Shown in pieces: positions 18,336-31,641 of a stretch of DNA of 64,000 bases. The stretch comes from Rickettsiales bacterium (lineage in GTDB: Bacteria > Pseudomonadota > Alphaproteobacteria > UBA8366), in NCBI GenBank assembly GCA_038131165.1, contig JAYPOZ010000011.1, forward strand, positions 4,121 through 68,120, written 5' to 3'. The position numbers and the translations under genes are program-made. Positions within the stretch are counted from its first letter, which is position 1. Each line of letters begins with the position of its first letter. The notes below the pieces were generated by a model that saw only the letters and a program-made list of their open reading frames with translations, was not told the origin of the DNA and searched no databases.

Positions 18336-20372
18336 TCAGGCTGTCTTAAACCCGGATTCTTGCTCCGCCGCGTCGACGGCGATCCGGAAATCCGTCTCGA
18401 CGTTGGCATGTATCAAATAGAGCGGGTCGCCGGCGCTGATATTGTCGCCAAGCCGTGCGATCAAATCGACGCCGGCGCTTTTGTCCATCGGGGCGCCGGC
18501 CCGTCGGGCGATGCCCGATATTCGGTAGGAATCGATTTCCCCTATAACGCCGCTGTTGCGCGCGACGACTTCGTGTACCAGGTCTCCCGGTTTGTCGGGT
18601 TTCTCGCGTCGACCTTGTAGGTCGACGATGCGCTCAAGCGCTTGGCGCGCTCTGCCGCTCGACAGAATTTCCCCCGCCAACCGGCGACCTTGGCCGCGCC
18701 CCACGGTCGGGTCCCATTCCAGTATGGAGGCCGCGAAACCGAGCGCTTTCTCCTTTAAGTCCTCGGGCGCGTCCTTGGCATTTTCCAGGACCTTGAAGAC
18801 GTCGCGGACCTCCAGCGCAGGGCCGATCCCGCGTCCGATCGGACGGCTGCCATCCGTCAGTCGAGCCGTGACCTTCAGCCCCACCCCGGCGCCGACTTCC
18901 TCGAACAGGCGCGATAATTCCCGGCCTTCCCGGCCTTGCTGAACCTTTGCATAGGGCCCCACCGGGATATCGATGATGACGTGCGTGGCGCCGGCGGCCA
19001 ATTTTTTCGACAGGATCGATGCGACCGCCCATTTCGTCGAGTCGATCCCGAGCGGTCGGGTGATCGAGTTCATCACGTCGTCGACGGGAGAATGGTTGAG
19101 GCGGCCATTCCAGGCGATGCAACCGTTTGCCTCGGCCACCACTTTCTCGACTTCCTCCGGCAGAAGGTCGACGCGGGCTATGGTCTCCATGGCGTCGGCG
19201 GTTCCCGCGGCGGAAGTGATGGCGCGCGAAGAGGTCTTCGGGATCAGAAGTCCGTGGGCGGCGACGATCGGGATGACGATCATGGTGATCCGGCTGCCGG
19301 GAATGCCGCCCATGGAATGCTTGTCGGCCACGATCTCGCGGCCCCAACTGAACGAATGCGCGAACTCCGCGCGGGCTCGGGTGAGCGACTGAACTTCGTC
19401 GACGGAAAGGTCTCTTGAGGCCGCGACGAGAAAGGCCGCAATTTCCTTCTCGGAATAGCGGTCTTCCGCAATATCCCGGATTACGGTCTGCATTTGATCT
19501 AGCGTGAGTTCGCTGCCGCTCAATTTGGCGCGCAAGGCGCTGATGCTCGACGGGGAAGGCGTCCTCTCCAAAGTAATCTCGGCGCCCTCCGGCAGGCCCA
19601 ATTCCTCGAAGGCGTGACGGGAAAGCCCGATTTCATCGACCCCCACAAATGCGATGTCGTCGGTGAGATTTACCTTGGCCCGAATGCCGACCACGTCGTT
19701 GGAGATGTCGACTTTACCTGTGCCAAGGTAGTCGGGCGCTGCGTAACTCGTGCACGCGCGGTTCAAGATACAGACGTTCTCGTGCCATGTGTCGATCGCC
19801 AGTTTGCGGACTTTTAGAATGCCCGGGATCGATCGGATCAGGGTGCGGATGAAGCGTTCGATGCCCTGCTCCGGTGTCTCGTCGTTCAGGACCGTCAGCA
19901 CTTCGACACCGGGTGGATAAGGGGTGGGGGTACGGGCCAGCCGCCGTGCGACGTCCGCCGCCGTCTCGCGACCGCGCGCCGCCAGGCGCGCGGCGAGAAT
20001 TTGGGGCGCCGCCGTAATCTCGACGACACGGGTGGTGGGATAGCGGCCGGCAATATCGGCGATGACGGCCCGCGAGACGTTTGCGAGAACATGCCGTCCT
20101 GCCGCGAGATCGGCTTCAAGCTCGATGGGCAGGCCATAGGAAAGGTCGTGGGCCCGCCAGTGAGAGAGGAACGCGCCGGATTCCAGGCGGCGGTCGAATT
20201 CCTCGGAATTAACGGATTCGTGTGCCTCTCCGCCGGCATCGGCAGGCCGGGTGATGACCCGGCGGGCGAAGACGAAGCGCCGGTCCCCGGCAAGCCGCTC
20301 CCGCGCACCGTCAAGCAAGGTGTCCTTGCCCGCGCCGCTCGGCCCAACGATGAGGAAAAGCATCCCGTTCAT
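18336..20372 (-). CDS. fusion protein: ribose 1,5-bisphosphate phosphokinase (PhnN) domain + type II thymidine phosphorylase / AMP-phosphorylase-like domain
   Basis: 678-aa ORF with a GGAAGGAA RBS. Residues 1 to about 185 match PhnN (FLIVGPSGAGKDTLL, SHWRAHDLSYG, ANVSRA, RLAARGRE). Residues from about 190 to 678 match the archaeal-type phosphorylase (N-terminal LKVRKLAIDT extension, ADKHSMGGIPGSR, KTSSRAITSAAGTADAME). Confidence 0.85.
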   Translation of the reverse strand: MNGMLFLIVGPSGAGKDTLLDGARERLAGDRRFVFARRVITRPADAGGEAHESVNSEEFDRRLESGAFLSHWRAHDLSYGLPIELEADLAAGRHVLANVSRAVIADIAGRYPTTRVVEITAAPQILAARLAARGRETAADVARRLARTPTPYPPGVEVLTVLNDETPEQGIERFIRTLIRSIPGILKVRKLAIDTWHENVCILNRACTSYAAPDYLGTGKVDISNDVVGIRAKVNLTDDIAFVGVDEIGLSRHAFEELGLPEGAEITLERTPSPSSISALRAKLSGSELTLDQMQTVIRDIAEDRYSEKEIAAFLVAASRDLSVDEVQSLTRARAEFAHSFSWGREIVADKHSMGGIPGSRITMIVIPIVAAHGLLIPKTSSRAITSAAGTADAMETIARVDLLPEEVEKVVAEANGCIAWNGRLNHSPVDDVMNSITRPLGIDSTKWAVASILSKKLAAGATHVIIDIPVGPYAKVQQGREGRELSRLFEEVGAGVGLKVTARLTDGSRPIGRGIGPALEVRDVFKVLENAKDAPEDLKEKALGFAASILEWDPTVGRGQGRRLAGEILSSGRARQALERIVDLQGRREKPDKPGDLVHEVVARNSGVIGEIDSYRISGIARRAGAPMDKSAGVDLIARLGDNISAGDPLYLIHANVETDFRIAVDAAEQESGFKTA

Positions 20373-20399
20373 TCGGGTTCCTTCCGACCGTCCCCGCCG

Positions 20400-29584: not shown

Positions 29585-31641
29585 GACGCTTCGCCTATTT
29601 CGATCAAAAGATTGCCGTCGCGGTCGACCTCGACGCGGCAGCCGGGCTCGATCACGGTCGTGGTGTCCATTTGCTCGACGATGGCGGGTCCTTCGAAGGC
29701 CCCGCCGATGGGCAGGCGGTCGCGGGTATAGATCGCGGTCTCGCGCCAGCTGCCATCGAACCAGACCCGGCGCGTCCCGTCCCGTGCCGCTTCGACGGTC
29801 GCTTCGCGTGCCGATCCGTCCATGATCCGTCCGAGATCGAAGTCCGGACGGCGCCCGATGACCGAGGTCTTCAAATTGACCAGATTCGCGCGGATTTCGG
29901 GCAATGCCACTTGGAACCTTTCGAAATAGGCCGCCTCGAAAATACGCTGGATTTCCTCTCTCGGCGTGTCGAGCGCCGGTATGGGGATCGAAATCAGATG
30001 CGTCTGGCCGATAAACTGCATGTCCGCGCCGTGCAGGACGCGGATATCCTCGATCGCAATCGTTTCGGAATCGATCAGATGTTTGCCGTCTGCAATCTGT
30101 GCCGCGAGCAGGGTCTGGACTTCTTCGAAATCCACTTGGTCGAGCGGCCGATTGACGGTGCGCACGAAATCGTGTCGGACATCGGCCACGACGCAACCGA
30201 GGGCGTTGGTGATGCCGGGGCGGGTCGGAATCAGAATGCGCGGGATTCCAAGTTCCCGGGCCAGGGCGACCGCATGCAGGGGACCGGCGCCACCGAAGGC
30301 GAACAGCGTGAAGTCGCGCGGATCATGTCCTTTCGATATCGAGACAATCCGTATCGCGCCGGCCATTCGGTCGTTTGCAACCCGAATGATGGCGCCGGCC
30401 GCGGTGTCGATATCCAGCCCGAGCGGTTGCGCGATTTTGGTGTCGAAAACCGCCTGGATGGCGTCGATCGCGGGGGCGGTTTCGGTGGAGAGAAGCTTTT
30501 CGGGATTGAGGCGCCCGAGGACGAGGTTGGCGTCGGTGATCGTCGGCGCGTCTCCGCCCCGGCCATAGCAGATCGGCCCGGGCGTGGCGCCGGCGCTCTC
30601 CGGTCCCACCCGCAGGAGGCCGGCATCGGTCACCCCGGCGATTGAACCGCCGCCCGATCCGATGGTTCGCACGTCGACCATCGGCACATGGATCGGCATG
30701 GCATATTCGACATCCAGCTCGTTGCTGACCGCCGGCACCGCGTCCAGGATCAAGGCGACGTCGGTCGAGGTGCCGCCCATGTCGTAGGTGATCAGATTGT
30801 CGATGCCGGCGCGTTTCGCCGCGTGCGCCGCGGCCATGACGCCCGAAGCCGGGCCCGACATGACGGTTTTGGCGGCTTCCCGGTCGACCAGGCGGGCCGA
30901 CACCATGCCGCCGTTGCCGTTCATCACCAACAGGTCGCGGCCGAACCCTTCGGCCGTGAGCTCGTTCTGCAGCCGGTCGATGTAGCGATGCAGGATCGGG
31001 CGCACGGCGGCATTGACGGAGGCGGTGACGCCGCGCTCGTATTCCCGGTATTCGGACAGCAATTCGTGGCCGGCGGTGATGTAGTCGTTGGGCCAGATGC
31101 CGCGCAGGATTTCCGTTGTCCGCTGCTCGTGCGCGGGGTTCGCATAGGCGTGCAGATAATGGACGACGACGGATTCGCAGCCGAGGCGCAGAAGCTCGCG
31201 GGCGGCCTGCGCGACCCCGTCCTCGTCGAGCGGGATGACGACATTGCCCGCGGCGTCCATGCGTTCGGCCACCTCGAGGCGCAGATCGCGCGGGATGACG
31301 GGTTCGAAGACGCCGGACATGCCGTAGGGTTGGGGGCGCGTGCGCCGGCCCACTTCGATGACGTCGCGAAAGCCCTTCGTGGTGATCATGCCCGTCTTGG
31401 ACAATTTGCGTTCGAGCACCGCATTGGTCGTTGTCGTCGTGCCGTGAACGATGGCGCCGATGGCGGAGAGGTCGACGTCCGTCTCGCGCAGCGCCGCGAG
31501 GACGCCGAAGGCCTGGTTTTCGACGGTCGTCGGCGTTTTCACGACGCGGACACCTTCCGGCGTGACGAGCAGCAGGTCGGTAAAGGTGCCGCCGACGTCG
31601 ATTCCGGCGATGACGGAATGGTCGGATGCGGAGTGGGACAA
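29581..31641 (-). CDS. hyuA: hydantoinase A/oxoprolinase-family ATPase subunit
   Basis: 686-aa ORF with a TTG start preceded by GAGG. Motifs IAGIDVGGTFTD, TYDMGGTSTDV and FGGAGPLHA. Confidence 0.9.
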   Translation of the reverse strand: MSHSASDHSVIAGIDVGGTFTDLLLVTPEGVRVVKTPTTVENQAFGVLAALRETDVDLSAIGAIVHGTTTTTNAVLERKLSKTGMITTKGFRDVIEVGRRTRPQPYGMSGVFEPVIPRDLRLEVAERMDAAGNVVIPLDEDGVAQAARELLRLGCESVVVHYLHAYANPAHEQRTTEILRGIWPNDYITAGHELLSEYREYERGVTASVNAAVRPILHRYIDRLQNELTAEGFGRDLLVMNGNGGMVSARLVDREAAKTVMSGPASGVMAAAHAAKRAGIDNLITYDMGGTSTDVALILDAVPAVSNELDVEYAMPIHVPMVDVRTIGSGGGSIAGVTDAGLLRVGPESAGATPGPICYGRGGDAPTITDANLVLGRLNPEKLLSTETAPAIDAIQAVFDTKIAQPLGLDIDTAAGAIIRVANDRMAGAIRIVSISKGHDPRDFTLFAFGGAGPLHAVALARELGIPRILIPTRPGITNALGCVVADVRHDFVRTVNRPLDQVDFEEVQTLLAAQIADGKHLIDSETIAIEDIRVLHGADMQFIGQTHLISIPIPALDTPREEIQRIFEAAYFERFQVALPEIRANLVNLKTSVIGRRPDFDLGRIMDGSAREATVEAARDGTRRVWFDGSWRETAIYTRDRLPIGGAFEGPAIVEQMDTTTVIEPGCRVEVDRDGNLLIEIGEAS

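Follow-up and report, generated by a model that had tools for sequence, protein, structure and literature searches.

The locus analyzed here lies at positions 18,336 – 31,641 of a 64-kb window (64,000 nucleotides of contig JAYPOZ010000011.1, assembly GCA_038131165.1, a Rickettsiales bacterium; all coordinates are those of the window). It consists of nine co-directional minus-strand open reading frames (ORFs) in which an ATP-dependent lactam hydrolase pair (HyuAB), a MarR-family regulator, a xanthine dehydrogenase (XDH)-family hydroxylase, a 6-hydroxynicotinate reductase (Hnr)-like protein and UPF0280 are followed by NadC and a fusion of PhnN with a nucleotide phosphorylase (Table 1). A first-pass annotation, made from the sequence without database searches, had counted ten genes, a number reached only if the fusion is counted twice. 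We read the locus as a catabolic operon under MarR control, either a single transcription unit or two in tandem, that would serve pyridine carboxylates; belief and doubt in this assignment are about equal.

Junctions were checked on the sequence and all agreed with the first-pass annotation. ATGA overlaps join hyuA to hyuB and the FAD gene to the fused 2Fe-2S/molybdenum cofactor (Moco) gene, and the final A of the Moco stop codon TAA doubles as the first base of the hnr ATG (GACTAATGCC). The remaining gaps measure 8 nt (hyuB-marR), 52 nt (marR-FAD), 9 nt (hnr-UPF0280), 49 nt (UPF0280-nadC) and 27 nt (nadC-fusion). GC content at third codon positions (GC3) was 0.80 – 0.86 in those ORFs that the frame filter retained (nadC, UPF0280, Moco, FAD and hyuA), which in a 64% GC genome is consistent with real coding frames. 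Promoter and terminator scans of the locus gave counts no better than those of shuffled sequence. Known RNAs such as a riboswitch were considered for the leader regions and rejected, as an Rfam scan of 17000 – 36000 at E ≤ 1 returned three sub-threshold chance matches only. The nearest relatives were found in uncultured marine alphaproteobacterial metagenome-assembled genomes (MAGs), of which seven contigs (L001-L007 in our numbering of compared loci) carry the identical gene order at 70 – 88% identity; these are close kin, so synteny among them is by itself no proof of functional linkage.

Table 1. Coordinates and assignments of the genes, domains and operator-like sites of the locus.
Feature	Position	Strand	Assignment	Basis
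hyuA	29581-31641	minus	predicted alpha subunit, ATP-dependent lactam hydrolase, hydantoinase/oxoprolinase A family	Pfam
hyuB	27842-29584	minus	predicted beta subunit, same enzyme as hyuA	Pfam
marR	27402-27833	minus	MarR-family regulator, probable repressor at palindromic box	Pfam MarR, MarR_2
FAD subunit	26489-27349	minus	FAD subunit, XDH-family molybdenum hydroxylase	Pfam FAD_binding_5, CO_deh_flav_C
Moco subunit	23724-26492	minus	fused 2Fe-2S/molybdopterin subunit, presumed nicotinate 6-hydroxylase	Pfam Fer2, Fer2_2, Ald_Xan_dh_C, MoCoBD_1, MoCoBD_2
hnr	22201-23724	minus	Hnr-like protein (6-hydroxynicotinate reductase family), short form	family membership
UPF0280	21289-22191	minus	UPF0280/ApbE-like (Pfam AbpE_bact)	NCBIfam NF003322
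nadC	20400-21239	minus	quinolinate phosphoribosyltransferase (decarboxylating)	TIGR00078 equivalog
PhnN::phosphorylase fusion gene	18336-20372	minus	two domains, one ORF	
PhnN domain of fusion	19839-20372	minus	predicted ribose 1,5-bisphosphate kinase (PRPP-forming)	TIGR02322
Phosphorylase domain of fusion	18336-19817	minus	nucleotide phosphorylase, archaeal AMP-phosphorylase clade, proposed NaMN phosphorylase	NF003338, TIGR02645
Operator-like palindrome, upstream of hyuA	31664-31682			
Operator-like palindrome, second copy, in marR-FAD gap	27361-27379			

Protein families and gene neighbourhoods

NadC scored 326 bits against TIGR00078 (cut-off 198), contained both QRPTase_N and QRPTase_C, and matched 19 solved quinolinate phosphoribosyltransferases (QAPRTases), among them 1X1O at 277 bits. 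The fusion protein has 678 residues. Its PhnN domain (residues 3 – 178) scored 198.6 bits against TIGR02322 (cut-off 156), and the P-loop GPSGAGKD and other residues were invariant in 11 diverse fusions. The C-terminal 490 residues scored 633 bits against NF003338 (cut-off 434) and 519 against TIGR02645 (cut-off 434.6). Among solved structures, this domain matched the AMP phosphorylase of T. kodakarensis (4GA5) at 308 bits and nucleoside phosphorylases (TP, PyNP) at no more than ~119 bits. These scores favour 4GA5 and thereby place the domain in the clade whose enzymes split nucleoside 5'-monophosphates to yield ribose 1,5-bisphosphate, the substrate of the fused PhnN. Homologues of the fusion are currently annotated 'PhnN' or 'thymidine phosphorylase'. 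The annotated genes of the window included no phn (phosphonate C-P lyase) gene and no Pfam family of ribose-1,5-bisphosphate isomerase or RuBisCO.

Loci containing the fusion were fetched individually and pooled with 80 from metagenomes that were retrieved by a search with 11 diverse, aligned fusions. Fusion homologues were common in Alpha- and Betaproteobacteria. Where enough upstream sequence was available, nadC lay directly upstream on the same strand (70 of 75 loci), at a distance of 49 nt or less in 63 loci and usually 15 – 49 nt; carriers of the pair include Azorhizobium, Bosea, Variovorax, Pacificitalea, Cupriavidus and Paraburkholderia. A triple NadC-PhnN-phosphorylase fusion, suggested by over-long ORF calls, was rejected, since nadC and the fusion share an open frame in none of the loci. 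Unfused phosphorylase relatives (41 – 50% identity) never had nadC nearby. They were also rejected as a functional guide, being a different subfamily found in Azospirillum and Novosphingobium beside genes for an MBL-fold hydrolase, PRPP synthetase and efflux.

Genes for a binding-protein-dependent transporter stood beside the pair in 32 of 71 fusion-centred loci (TctC in 10, NMT1-type ABC in 12, TAXI-TRAP in 10), and an orthologue of the MarR of the window in 14 of the 71. Three differing sets of nicotinate-degradation genes were found next to the pair, spread over 11 of the 71 loci, with nicotinate as their common denominator. One is the Hnr/FAD/Moco type of the window. The next, in L089, combines Hnr with a NicAB-like Moco-cytochrome c hydroxylase; the order is Hnr-UPF0280-AA_synth-NicA-NicB(cytochrome c)-NadC-fusion, and genes for TctC, a family III CoA-transferase and an acyl-CoA dehydrogenase come after it. 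L085 (NicA-NicB-NadC-fusion with TctC, lacking hnr) has the same hydroxylase as L089. In Cupriavidus pauculus, a plasmid carries the pair, MarR genes and TctC next to an aerobic NicF-NicX-NicD-NicE-NicC-NicA-NicB set. The TctC protein of this plasmid scored 362 bits against Bug27 (2QPQ) and at most 212 bits against other TctC structures, and by sequence is an orthologue of Bordetella Bug27, which binds quinolinate with sub-micromolar affinity (PMC11452294).

Other neighbours of the pair were recorded. An FRG-domain protein recurs beside the NadC-fusion-TctC unit in betaproteobacterial-type loci (L012, L017, L033, L040, L085 and L089; 14 loci in clustering). In four marine metagenome loci (L066, L072, L074 and L077), the pair is accompanied by UbiD-type decarboxylases, an Amidohydro_2 (ACMSD/PicC-type) decarboxylase, a family III CoA-transferase, an acyl-CoA dehydrogenase and MarR, and the palindromic operator described below occurs in three promoter regions of loci of this type, which may be a variant for other pyridine carboxylates.

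A single-query genome scan with Hnr gave only 8 close relatives, and wider Hnr contexts were obtained by individual look-ups. Across the diverse Hnr homologue loci so collected, the constant core was MarR, FAD, 2Fe2S/Moco, Hnr and UPF0280, plus one of two alternative modules. The XDH-family hydroxylase with its FAD and 2Fe-2S modules adjoins hnr (Pfam; stop/start codon overlap). Its Moco subunit reached no NCBIfam equivalog cut-off, and its presumed substrate was therefore taken from gene context only. The core is the proteobacterial version of the Eubacterium/Azorhizobium nicotinate cluster, known in outline; the grouping of hydroxylase, Hnr and UPF0280 genes was already noted in Azorhizobium, Bradyrhizobium and Rhodopseudomonas (PMC3511419).

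Pfam, NCBIfam and PDB sequence searches returned no match for the Hnr-like protein. A word-index search returned at least 8000 relatives, all at E ≤ 0.001, several of which are named 6-hydroxynicotinate reductase (NCBI, JGI). Comparison with the E. barkeri enzyme was made through a published figure, 42% identity for an alphaproteobacterial Hnr homologue (PMC3511419), in place of a direct alignment. By alignment, the Hnr of the window and all close relatives begin after an N-terminal 2x[4Fe-4S] domain, which distant relatives (35 – 48% identity) carry as an extra ferredoxin domain (confirmed in those checked). Cys30, Cys33, Cys37 and Cys47 were invariant across the family and form the only such motif common to the short and ferredoxin-domain forms. 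A confident AF2 model of the protein (pLDDT 87.5, pTM 0.84) gave no fold match in a Foldseek search of the PDB (best E 0.03, TM below 0.12), so the flavin site could not be located. Hnr thus appears to be an abundant, structurally uncharacterised oxidoreductase family.

UPF0280 scored 347 bits against NF003322 (cut-off 290), and its orthologues have a precomputed Pfam assignment (PF27030). Among proteobacterial loci with sequence beyond hnr, almost all have it next to Hnr, with MarR intervening in L015; it was not detected in L061 and is absent from L100, the sole locus examined with a ferredoxin-domain Hnr. A role in maturation of the short-form Hnr, or in electron transfer with it, is possible for UPF0280 and may be peculiar to this form. 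The E. barkeri Hnr reportedly carries a covalent flavin, and an ApbE-type flavin transferase role for UPF0280 in Hnr is noted as a lead, the one structural link being a weak match to 2O34, itself a hypothetical protein. Among the family assignments of the first-pass annotation, profile searches bore out UPF0280, NadC, PhnN and the Pfam domains of HyuAB, XDH and MarR; the Hnr-like protein matched no model and belongs nonetheless to the 6-hydroxynicotinate reductase family.

HyuA contains the Pfam domains Hydantoinase_A, Hydant_A_N and Hydant_A_C, and HyuB matched Hydantoinase_B at 539 bits. The best NCBIfam match of HyuA was caprolactamase alpha; both subunits fell below the CapAB equivalogs NF050156/NF050157 (508 and 327 bits against cut-offs of 1000 each). 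The nearest solved structures to HyuB were caprolactamase 6YRA (279 bits) and N-methylhydantoinase 7HK5. hyuA adjoins the Hnr core in L001, L006-L008, L015, L102 and L103. The order is HyuA-HyuB-MarR-FAD-Moco-Hnr-UPF0280 in L102 and L103; L015 has the same set, with MarR after Hnr rather than after HyuB, and L008 has Hnr-UPF0280-HyuA-HyuB. In L016 and L101, a divergent Amidohydro_1 (enamidase-like) gene and one or two AA_synth genes take the place of HyuAB; an enamidase-like gene is likewise present in L026 and L061, and L100 reads Hnr-Amidohydro_1-Moco-FAD-2Fe2S. Over 16 Hnr loci, HyuAB was present in 11 (seven of them from one marine clade), an Amidohydro_1 enamidase-like gene in five, and both in none.

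The first-pass annotation had remarked that no enamidase was present and that HyuAB stood in its place. Absence was confirmed for the whole window: tblastn with the L016 protein found no enamidase homologue, no AA_synth homologue was found in the 64 kb, and the operon encodes no Amidohydro_1 domain. Replacement is supported by the complementary distribution across the Hnr loci, on which basis HyuAB was taken as the probable ring opener, acting on a substrate assigned by context. Two side observations concern these genes. AA_synth (PF06684; one or two genes) is usual in Hnr clusters that have no HyuAB (L010, L016, L026, L048, L089 and L101), is not found in HyuAB-type clusters, and may take part in ring opening or the following step. 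A second hyuA, 34% identical to the first, lies ~4 kb away (35629 – 39547), and the hyuB beside it was recovered by tblastn as segments in different frames (37903 – 38556 and 38525 – 39541), reflecting either a frameshifted pseudogene or a sequencing error.

Palindromic boxes and the MarR regulator

The conserved box that the first-pass annotation saw in the marR-FAD gap is real, and a second copy lies upstream of hyuA. The box is the 19-mer TTTGTATGTAGACAAACAA, which ends 12 nt short of the FAD ATG; the copy upstream of hyuA is exact and in inverted orientation (2 matches against 0.00 expected). This hyuA-side box abuts the -10 hexamer of a promoter-like site (31709 – 31681), with which it shares two bases. 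Across relatives, the box is a 7-4-7 palindrome, TTGTTTG-N4-CAAACAA. Searches of 1.42 Mb of fetched loci plus the window returned 22 sites with at most one mismatch (0.05 expected) and 33 with at most two (2.55 expected). Of the 33 sites, 28 immediately precede one of the genes hyuA, FAD, hnr, nadC, marR or that of an NMT1 binding protein; four of the remaining five lie between divergent acyl-CoA dehydrogenase and UbiD genes.

Loci of the Bosea type have two boxes in the intergenic region between divergent hnr and nadC, and boxes also precede nadC in stand-alone NadC-fusion loci where hnr is not nearby. By this distribution, hyuAB, the core and the NadC-fusion pair belong to a single regulon. 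MarR orthologues (40 – 52% identity) accompany Hnr clusters and stand-alone NadC-fusion loci alike, and the regulator of the regulon is presumably this conserved MarR, for which binding to the box is predicted from sequence.

Proposed pathway and alternatives

In the proposed pathway, NadC would convert quinolinate and phosphoribosyl pyrophosphate (PRPP) to nicotinate mononucleotide (NaMN), CO2 and PPi; the AMP-phosphorylase-like domain would cleave NaMN with Pi to nicotinate and ribose 1,5-bisphosphate; and the PhnN domain would return ribose 1,5-bisphosphate to PRPP at the expense of ATP, releasing ADP. These three activities close a loop on paper, because NadC uses PRPP, the phosphorylase clade yields ribose 1,5-bisphosphate and PhnN yields PRPP. 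The cycle would have the net reaction quinolinate + ATP + Pi -> nicotinate + CO2 + ADP + PPi, with PRPP catalytic. The pyridinium N-riboside bond is energy-rich, and its phosphorolysis would for that reason be strongly favourable. Nicotinate would then be hydroxylated to 6-hydroxynicotinate by the FAD/2Fe2S/Moco enzyme and reduced to 1,4,5,6-tetrahydro-6-oxonicotinate by short-form Hnr with UPF0280, two steps that would jointly be redox-neutral. HyuAB, using a second ATP, would open this cyclic enamide to 2-formylglutarate and ammonia.

Built on the observed family memberships, gene linkage, common operator and complementary HyuAB/enamidase distribution, the resulting reading is quinolinate catabolism by a PRPP-cycling NadC (an enzyme otherwise known from biosynthesis only), a new NaMN phosphorylase (an offshoot of the archaeal AMP phosphorylases) and PhnN, which together would form a portable feeder, widespread among Alpha- and Betaproteobacteria, for the host's nicotinate pathway, here one with HyuAB. 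We judge it an even call. The first-pass annotation had offered two inferences, release of the base from NaMN or NMN (nicotinamide mononucleotide) and a quinolinate/nicotinate catabolic variant; neither is right as worded, and the evidence favours a merger of the two. In searchable full-text literature, outside which subscription journals mostly fall, NaMN phosphorolysis, a PRPP cycle from quinolinate to nicotinate, HyuAB as a nicotinate ring opener and the operator of the regulon were undescribed. We know of no NaMN phosphorylase, PRPP quinolinate cycle, HyuAB nicotinate ring opener or operator of this regulon. While the earlier family assignments and the absence of enamidase stood, the remark that no such operon composition was known overstated the novelty, as the core cluster (PMC3511419) and the adjacency of nadC and phnN (PMC11452294) had been noted; no description of the PRPP cycle was found.

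The operon holds no genes for steps past ring opening. A family III CoA-transferase is encoded at 9400 – 10614 (best match succinate-glutarate CoA-transferase, at 311 bits where the cut-off is 750), and an MmgE/PrpD-family gene at 12291 – 13736; the latter family directly follows the fusion in L004, L021 and L022. Both are listed as candidates for later steps of a glutarate-type route, and as leads only.

Several points weigh against the PRPP-cycling pathway. All substrate assignments were inferred, above all NaMN for the phosphorylase and tetrahydro-oxonicotinate for HyuAB, and the substrate of the hydroxylase cannot be read from its sequence. The phosphorylase domain falls below the AMP_phos equivalog TIGR03327 (455 against 535 bits), which marks it only as different from AMP phosphorylase. 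The known substrates of AMP phosphorylase (T. kodakarensis) are AMP, CMP, UMP and GMP, and NaMN is not known to be one. A nicotinate-catabolism marker was found in just 11 of the 71 fusion-centred loci within the available flanks (7 of 33 among loci of at least 15 kb), and most fusion loci consist of a transporter and the pair only; many of the sampled loci are mutually related, so that the counts overstate independent events. The operon itself has no transporter gene. According to work cited in PMC11452294, Bug27 in vitro also binds nicotinate, nicotinamide and citrate. Finally, the nadC of the operon may be the organism's only copy and so its housekeeping gene too.

Four alternatives were weighed. 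NadC and the fusion could be anabolic, salvaging quinolinate by way of NaMN for NAD; PRPP for NadC would come from ordinary nucleotides such as AMP or CMP, whose ribose bisphosphate the phosphorylase and PhnN remove, and the nicotinate genes would be adjacent through common pyridine regulation only. NadC is the canonical enzyme of NAD biosynthesis, AMP, CMP and UMP are the substrates of known AMP phosphorylases, and the loci reduced to transporter and pair fit this explanation; the bug27-nadC-phnN adjacency was indeed published as NAD metabolism (PMC11452294). We nevertheless consider it rather unlikely, as a vitamin-level flux needs neither a dedicated PRPP source nor the transporters seen in 32 of the 71 loci, and the pair forms the distal end of a catabolic operon, shares its operator with hyuA, the FAD gene and hnr, and is linked to three different nicotinate-degradation sets. 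Spending one nucleotide per quinolinate would also leave the free base unaccounted for, the reading gives the phosphorylase no sensible role, and the copies on plasmids or secondary replicons resemble accessory rather than housekeeping genes. Mononucleotide scavenging, the first of the two inferences in the first-pass annotation, would have the phosphorylase act on NMN or NaMN of extracellular origin or derived from NAD turnover, with degradation of the base and conversion of the ribose bisphosphate to PRPP for general use; it has compatible phosphorylase and PhnN chemistry and nicotinate-degradation genes directly upstream. It is improbable in that NadC, the most constant neighbour of the fusion (70/75 loci), would be reduced to a bystander or a consumer of PRPP; the associated binding proteins are TctC (Bug27-type), NMT1 and TAXI, of which Bug27 binds the free acid, and none resembles a known nucleotide importer, although no dedicated comparison was run.

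There is likewise little probability that a different N-heterocycle or lactam is the substrate of the hydroxylase, Hnr and HyuAB (for the hydroxylase, for instance, quinolinate or some further pyridine carboxylate), with the tetrahydro-oxonicotinate route not operating here. Room for this is given by the Moco subunit scoring below every equivalog, by the lack in short-form Hnr of the ferredoxin domain of the E. barkeri-like arrangement (L100), by the many substrates of HyuAB paralogues and the second HyuAB pair 4 kb away, and by the marine fusion loci that carry UbiD and Amidohydro_2 decarboxylases instead. Against it, L016 and L101 combine the same core (MarR, FAD, Moco, Hnr and UPF0280) with an enamidase-like gene, Bradyrhizobiaceae strain SG-6C, whose Hnr homologue lies in a conserved cluster, mineralises nicotinate and 6-hydroxynicotinate (PMC3511419), and Azorhizobium was reported to use this route (Kitts 1989, 1992, as cited in PMC3511419). 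Very improbable is a chance juxtaposition, in which the pair came to lie behind the nicotinate genes of this marine lineage by accident and the two are functionally uncoupled. The full nine-gene order was met in one marine MAG clade only, and the seven-gene HyuAB/MarR/FAD/Moco/Hnr/UPF0280 cluster occurs without the pair in L015, L102 and L103. Yet independent arrangements occur elsewhere (the Bosea-type divergent promoter with two boxes, L089, L085 and the Cupriavidus plasmid), and the operator precedes nadC even where no hnr is nearby.

The locus was compared with known systems. The nicotinate fermentation cluster of Eubacterium barkeri, reportedly described by Alhapel et al. in 2006, is said to comprise nicotinate dehydrogenase, Hnr and enamidase. 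Both clusters have an XDH-family hydroxylase adjoining an Hnr-family protein and the same proposed intermediates, 6-hydroxynicotinate and 1,4,5,6-tetrahydro-6-oxonicotinate; in the window, Hnr lacks the 2x[4Fe-4S] domain, HyuAB stands instead of enamidase, UPF0280, NadC and the fusion are present, and later fermentation genes are absent. The nic cluster of Pseudomonas putida consists of NicAB, NicC, NicX, NicD, NicE, NicF and the MarR-type NicR. As is proposed for the operon here, it degrades nicotinate under the control of a MarR-type repressor, and a cluster of this kind adjoins the pair on the Cupriavidus plasmid; tblastn with Cupriavidus NicC, NicX, NicD, NicE and NicF gave no match in the 64-kb window. 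Among solved structures, the AMP phosphorylase of the T. kodakarensis pentose bisphosphate pathway (PDB 4GA4-6) comes nearest to the phosphorylase domain, with which it shares an extra N-terminal domain and the expected product ribose 1,5-bisphosphate; unlike it, the window domain is fused to PhnN, is not coupled to ribose-1,5-bisphosphate isomerase and RuBisCO, and has NaMN as its proposed substrate. HyuAB shares its two-subunit architecture and domains with caprolactamase (6YRA), N-methylhydantoinase and 5-oxoprolinase, and ATP-driven opening of a cyclic amide is expected; it differs from caprolactamase in scoring far below the cut-offs and in its proposed substrate, a six-membered enamide-lactam.

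Short-form Hnr, hydroxylase, conserved unknowns and a MarR-type regulator are also found in the Azorhizobium caulinodans/Bradyrhizobiaceae cluster (Kitts 1989, 1992; Shettigar 2012, PMC3511419), which by the account in PMC3511419 supports aerobic nicotinate use via tetrahydro-oxonicotinate. The published cluster covers the first three steps, including an enamidase homologue, and has an ABC transporter (PMC3511419), whereas the window has HyuAB, no AA_synth, no transporter, and NadC and the fusion appended. E. coli PhnN of the C-P lyase pathway (Hove-Jensen 2003, as cited in PMC11452294) and the window domain, which is above the PhnN equivalog cut-off, are expected to catalyse the same PRPP-forming reaction; the window domain differs in being fused to a phosphorylase and paired with NadC, and its surroundings lack phn genes. 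The quinolinate salvage loci nadQ-nadC-bug69 and bug27-nadC-phnN (Brickman 2017; PMC11452294) likewise combine NadC with a Bug27-type protein and phnN, and the Variovorax locus of PMC11452294 is of the same type as L012. Those loci were read as NAD biosynthesis, with the phosphorylase domain unmentioned, whereas the pair of the window is embedded in and co-regulated with catabolic genes.

Flanking genes and significance

Downstream of the operon, between the fusion gene and the MmgE/PrpD-family gene, a block of lower GC content (14230 – 18206; 58% against about 65%) encodes a PAS-MCP chemoreceptor and a partner-switching set (STAS, a HATPase_c_2 kinase-like protein and a response-regulator/SpoIIE phosphatase). 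The block looks inserted, because the PrpD gene directly follows the fusion in L004, L021 and L022; L001 and L006 share part of it. Directly upstream of hyuA (31736 – 35549) lie minus-strand genes for a MurF-like Mur ligase and an alpha/beta hydrolase, both syntenic in L001 and L007, and a divergent plus-strand D-Ala-D-Ala-ligase-like gene. Further out, catabolic functions are encoded at high density over positions 40275 – 64000 (two TauD-family dioxygenases, an amidase, an intradiol-dioxygenase-like protein, Amidohydro_2, Amidohydro_3, an arylmalonate-decarboxylase-like protein, short-chain dehydrogenases/reductases, an acyl-CoA ligase and a thiolase), which suggests a catabolic island; no link to the operon was seen.

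Quinolinate, a neurotoxin, commonly occurs as a metabolite in the breakdown of tryptophan and the synthesis of NAD. To our knowledge, the only known bacterial route for its degradation starts with ring hydroxylation (Alcaligenes). The proteobacterial hydroxylase/Hnr cluster (PMC3511419), the nadC-phnN-bug27 adjacency (PMC11452294) and all enzyme families involved are known already. The alternation of HyuAB and enamidase points to two unrelated enzymes for one ring opening, and short-form Hnr with UPF0280 represents an abundant reductase family that has no solved fold. Each step of the pathway can be tested with commercial substrates in culturable carriers (Bosea, Xanthobacter, Variovorax and Cupriavidus). 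If the PRPP-cycling route is true, it would be a second, mechanistically distinct pathway of quinolinate degradation, in which NadC would gain a catabolic role and PhnN a role beyond phosphonate use, and it would provide the first function for the bacterial PhnN-fused branch of the AMP-phosphorylase family.

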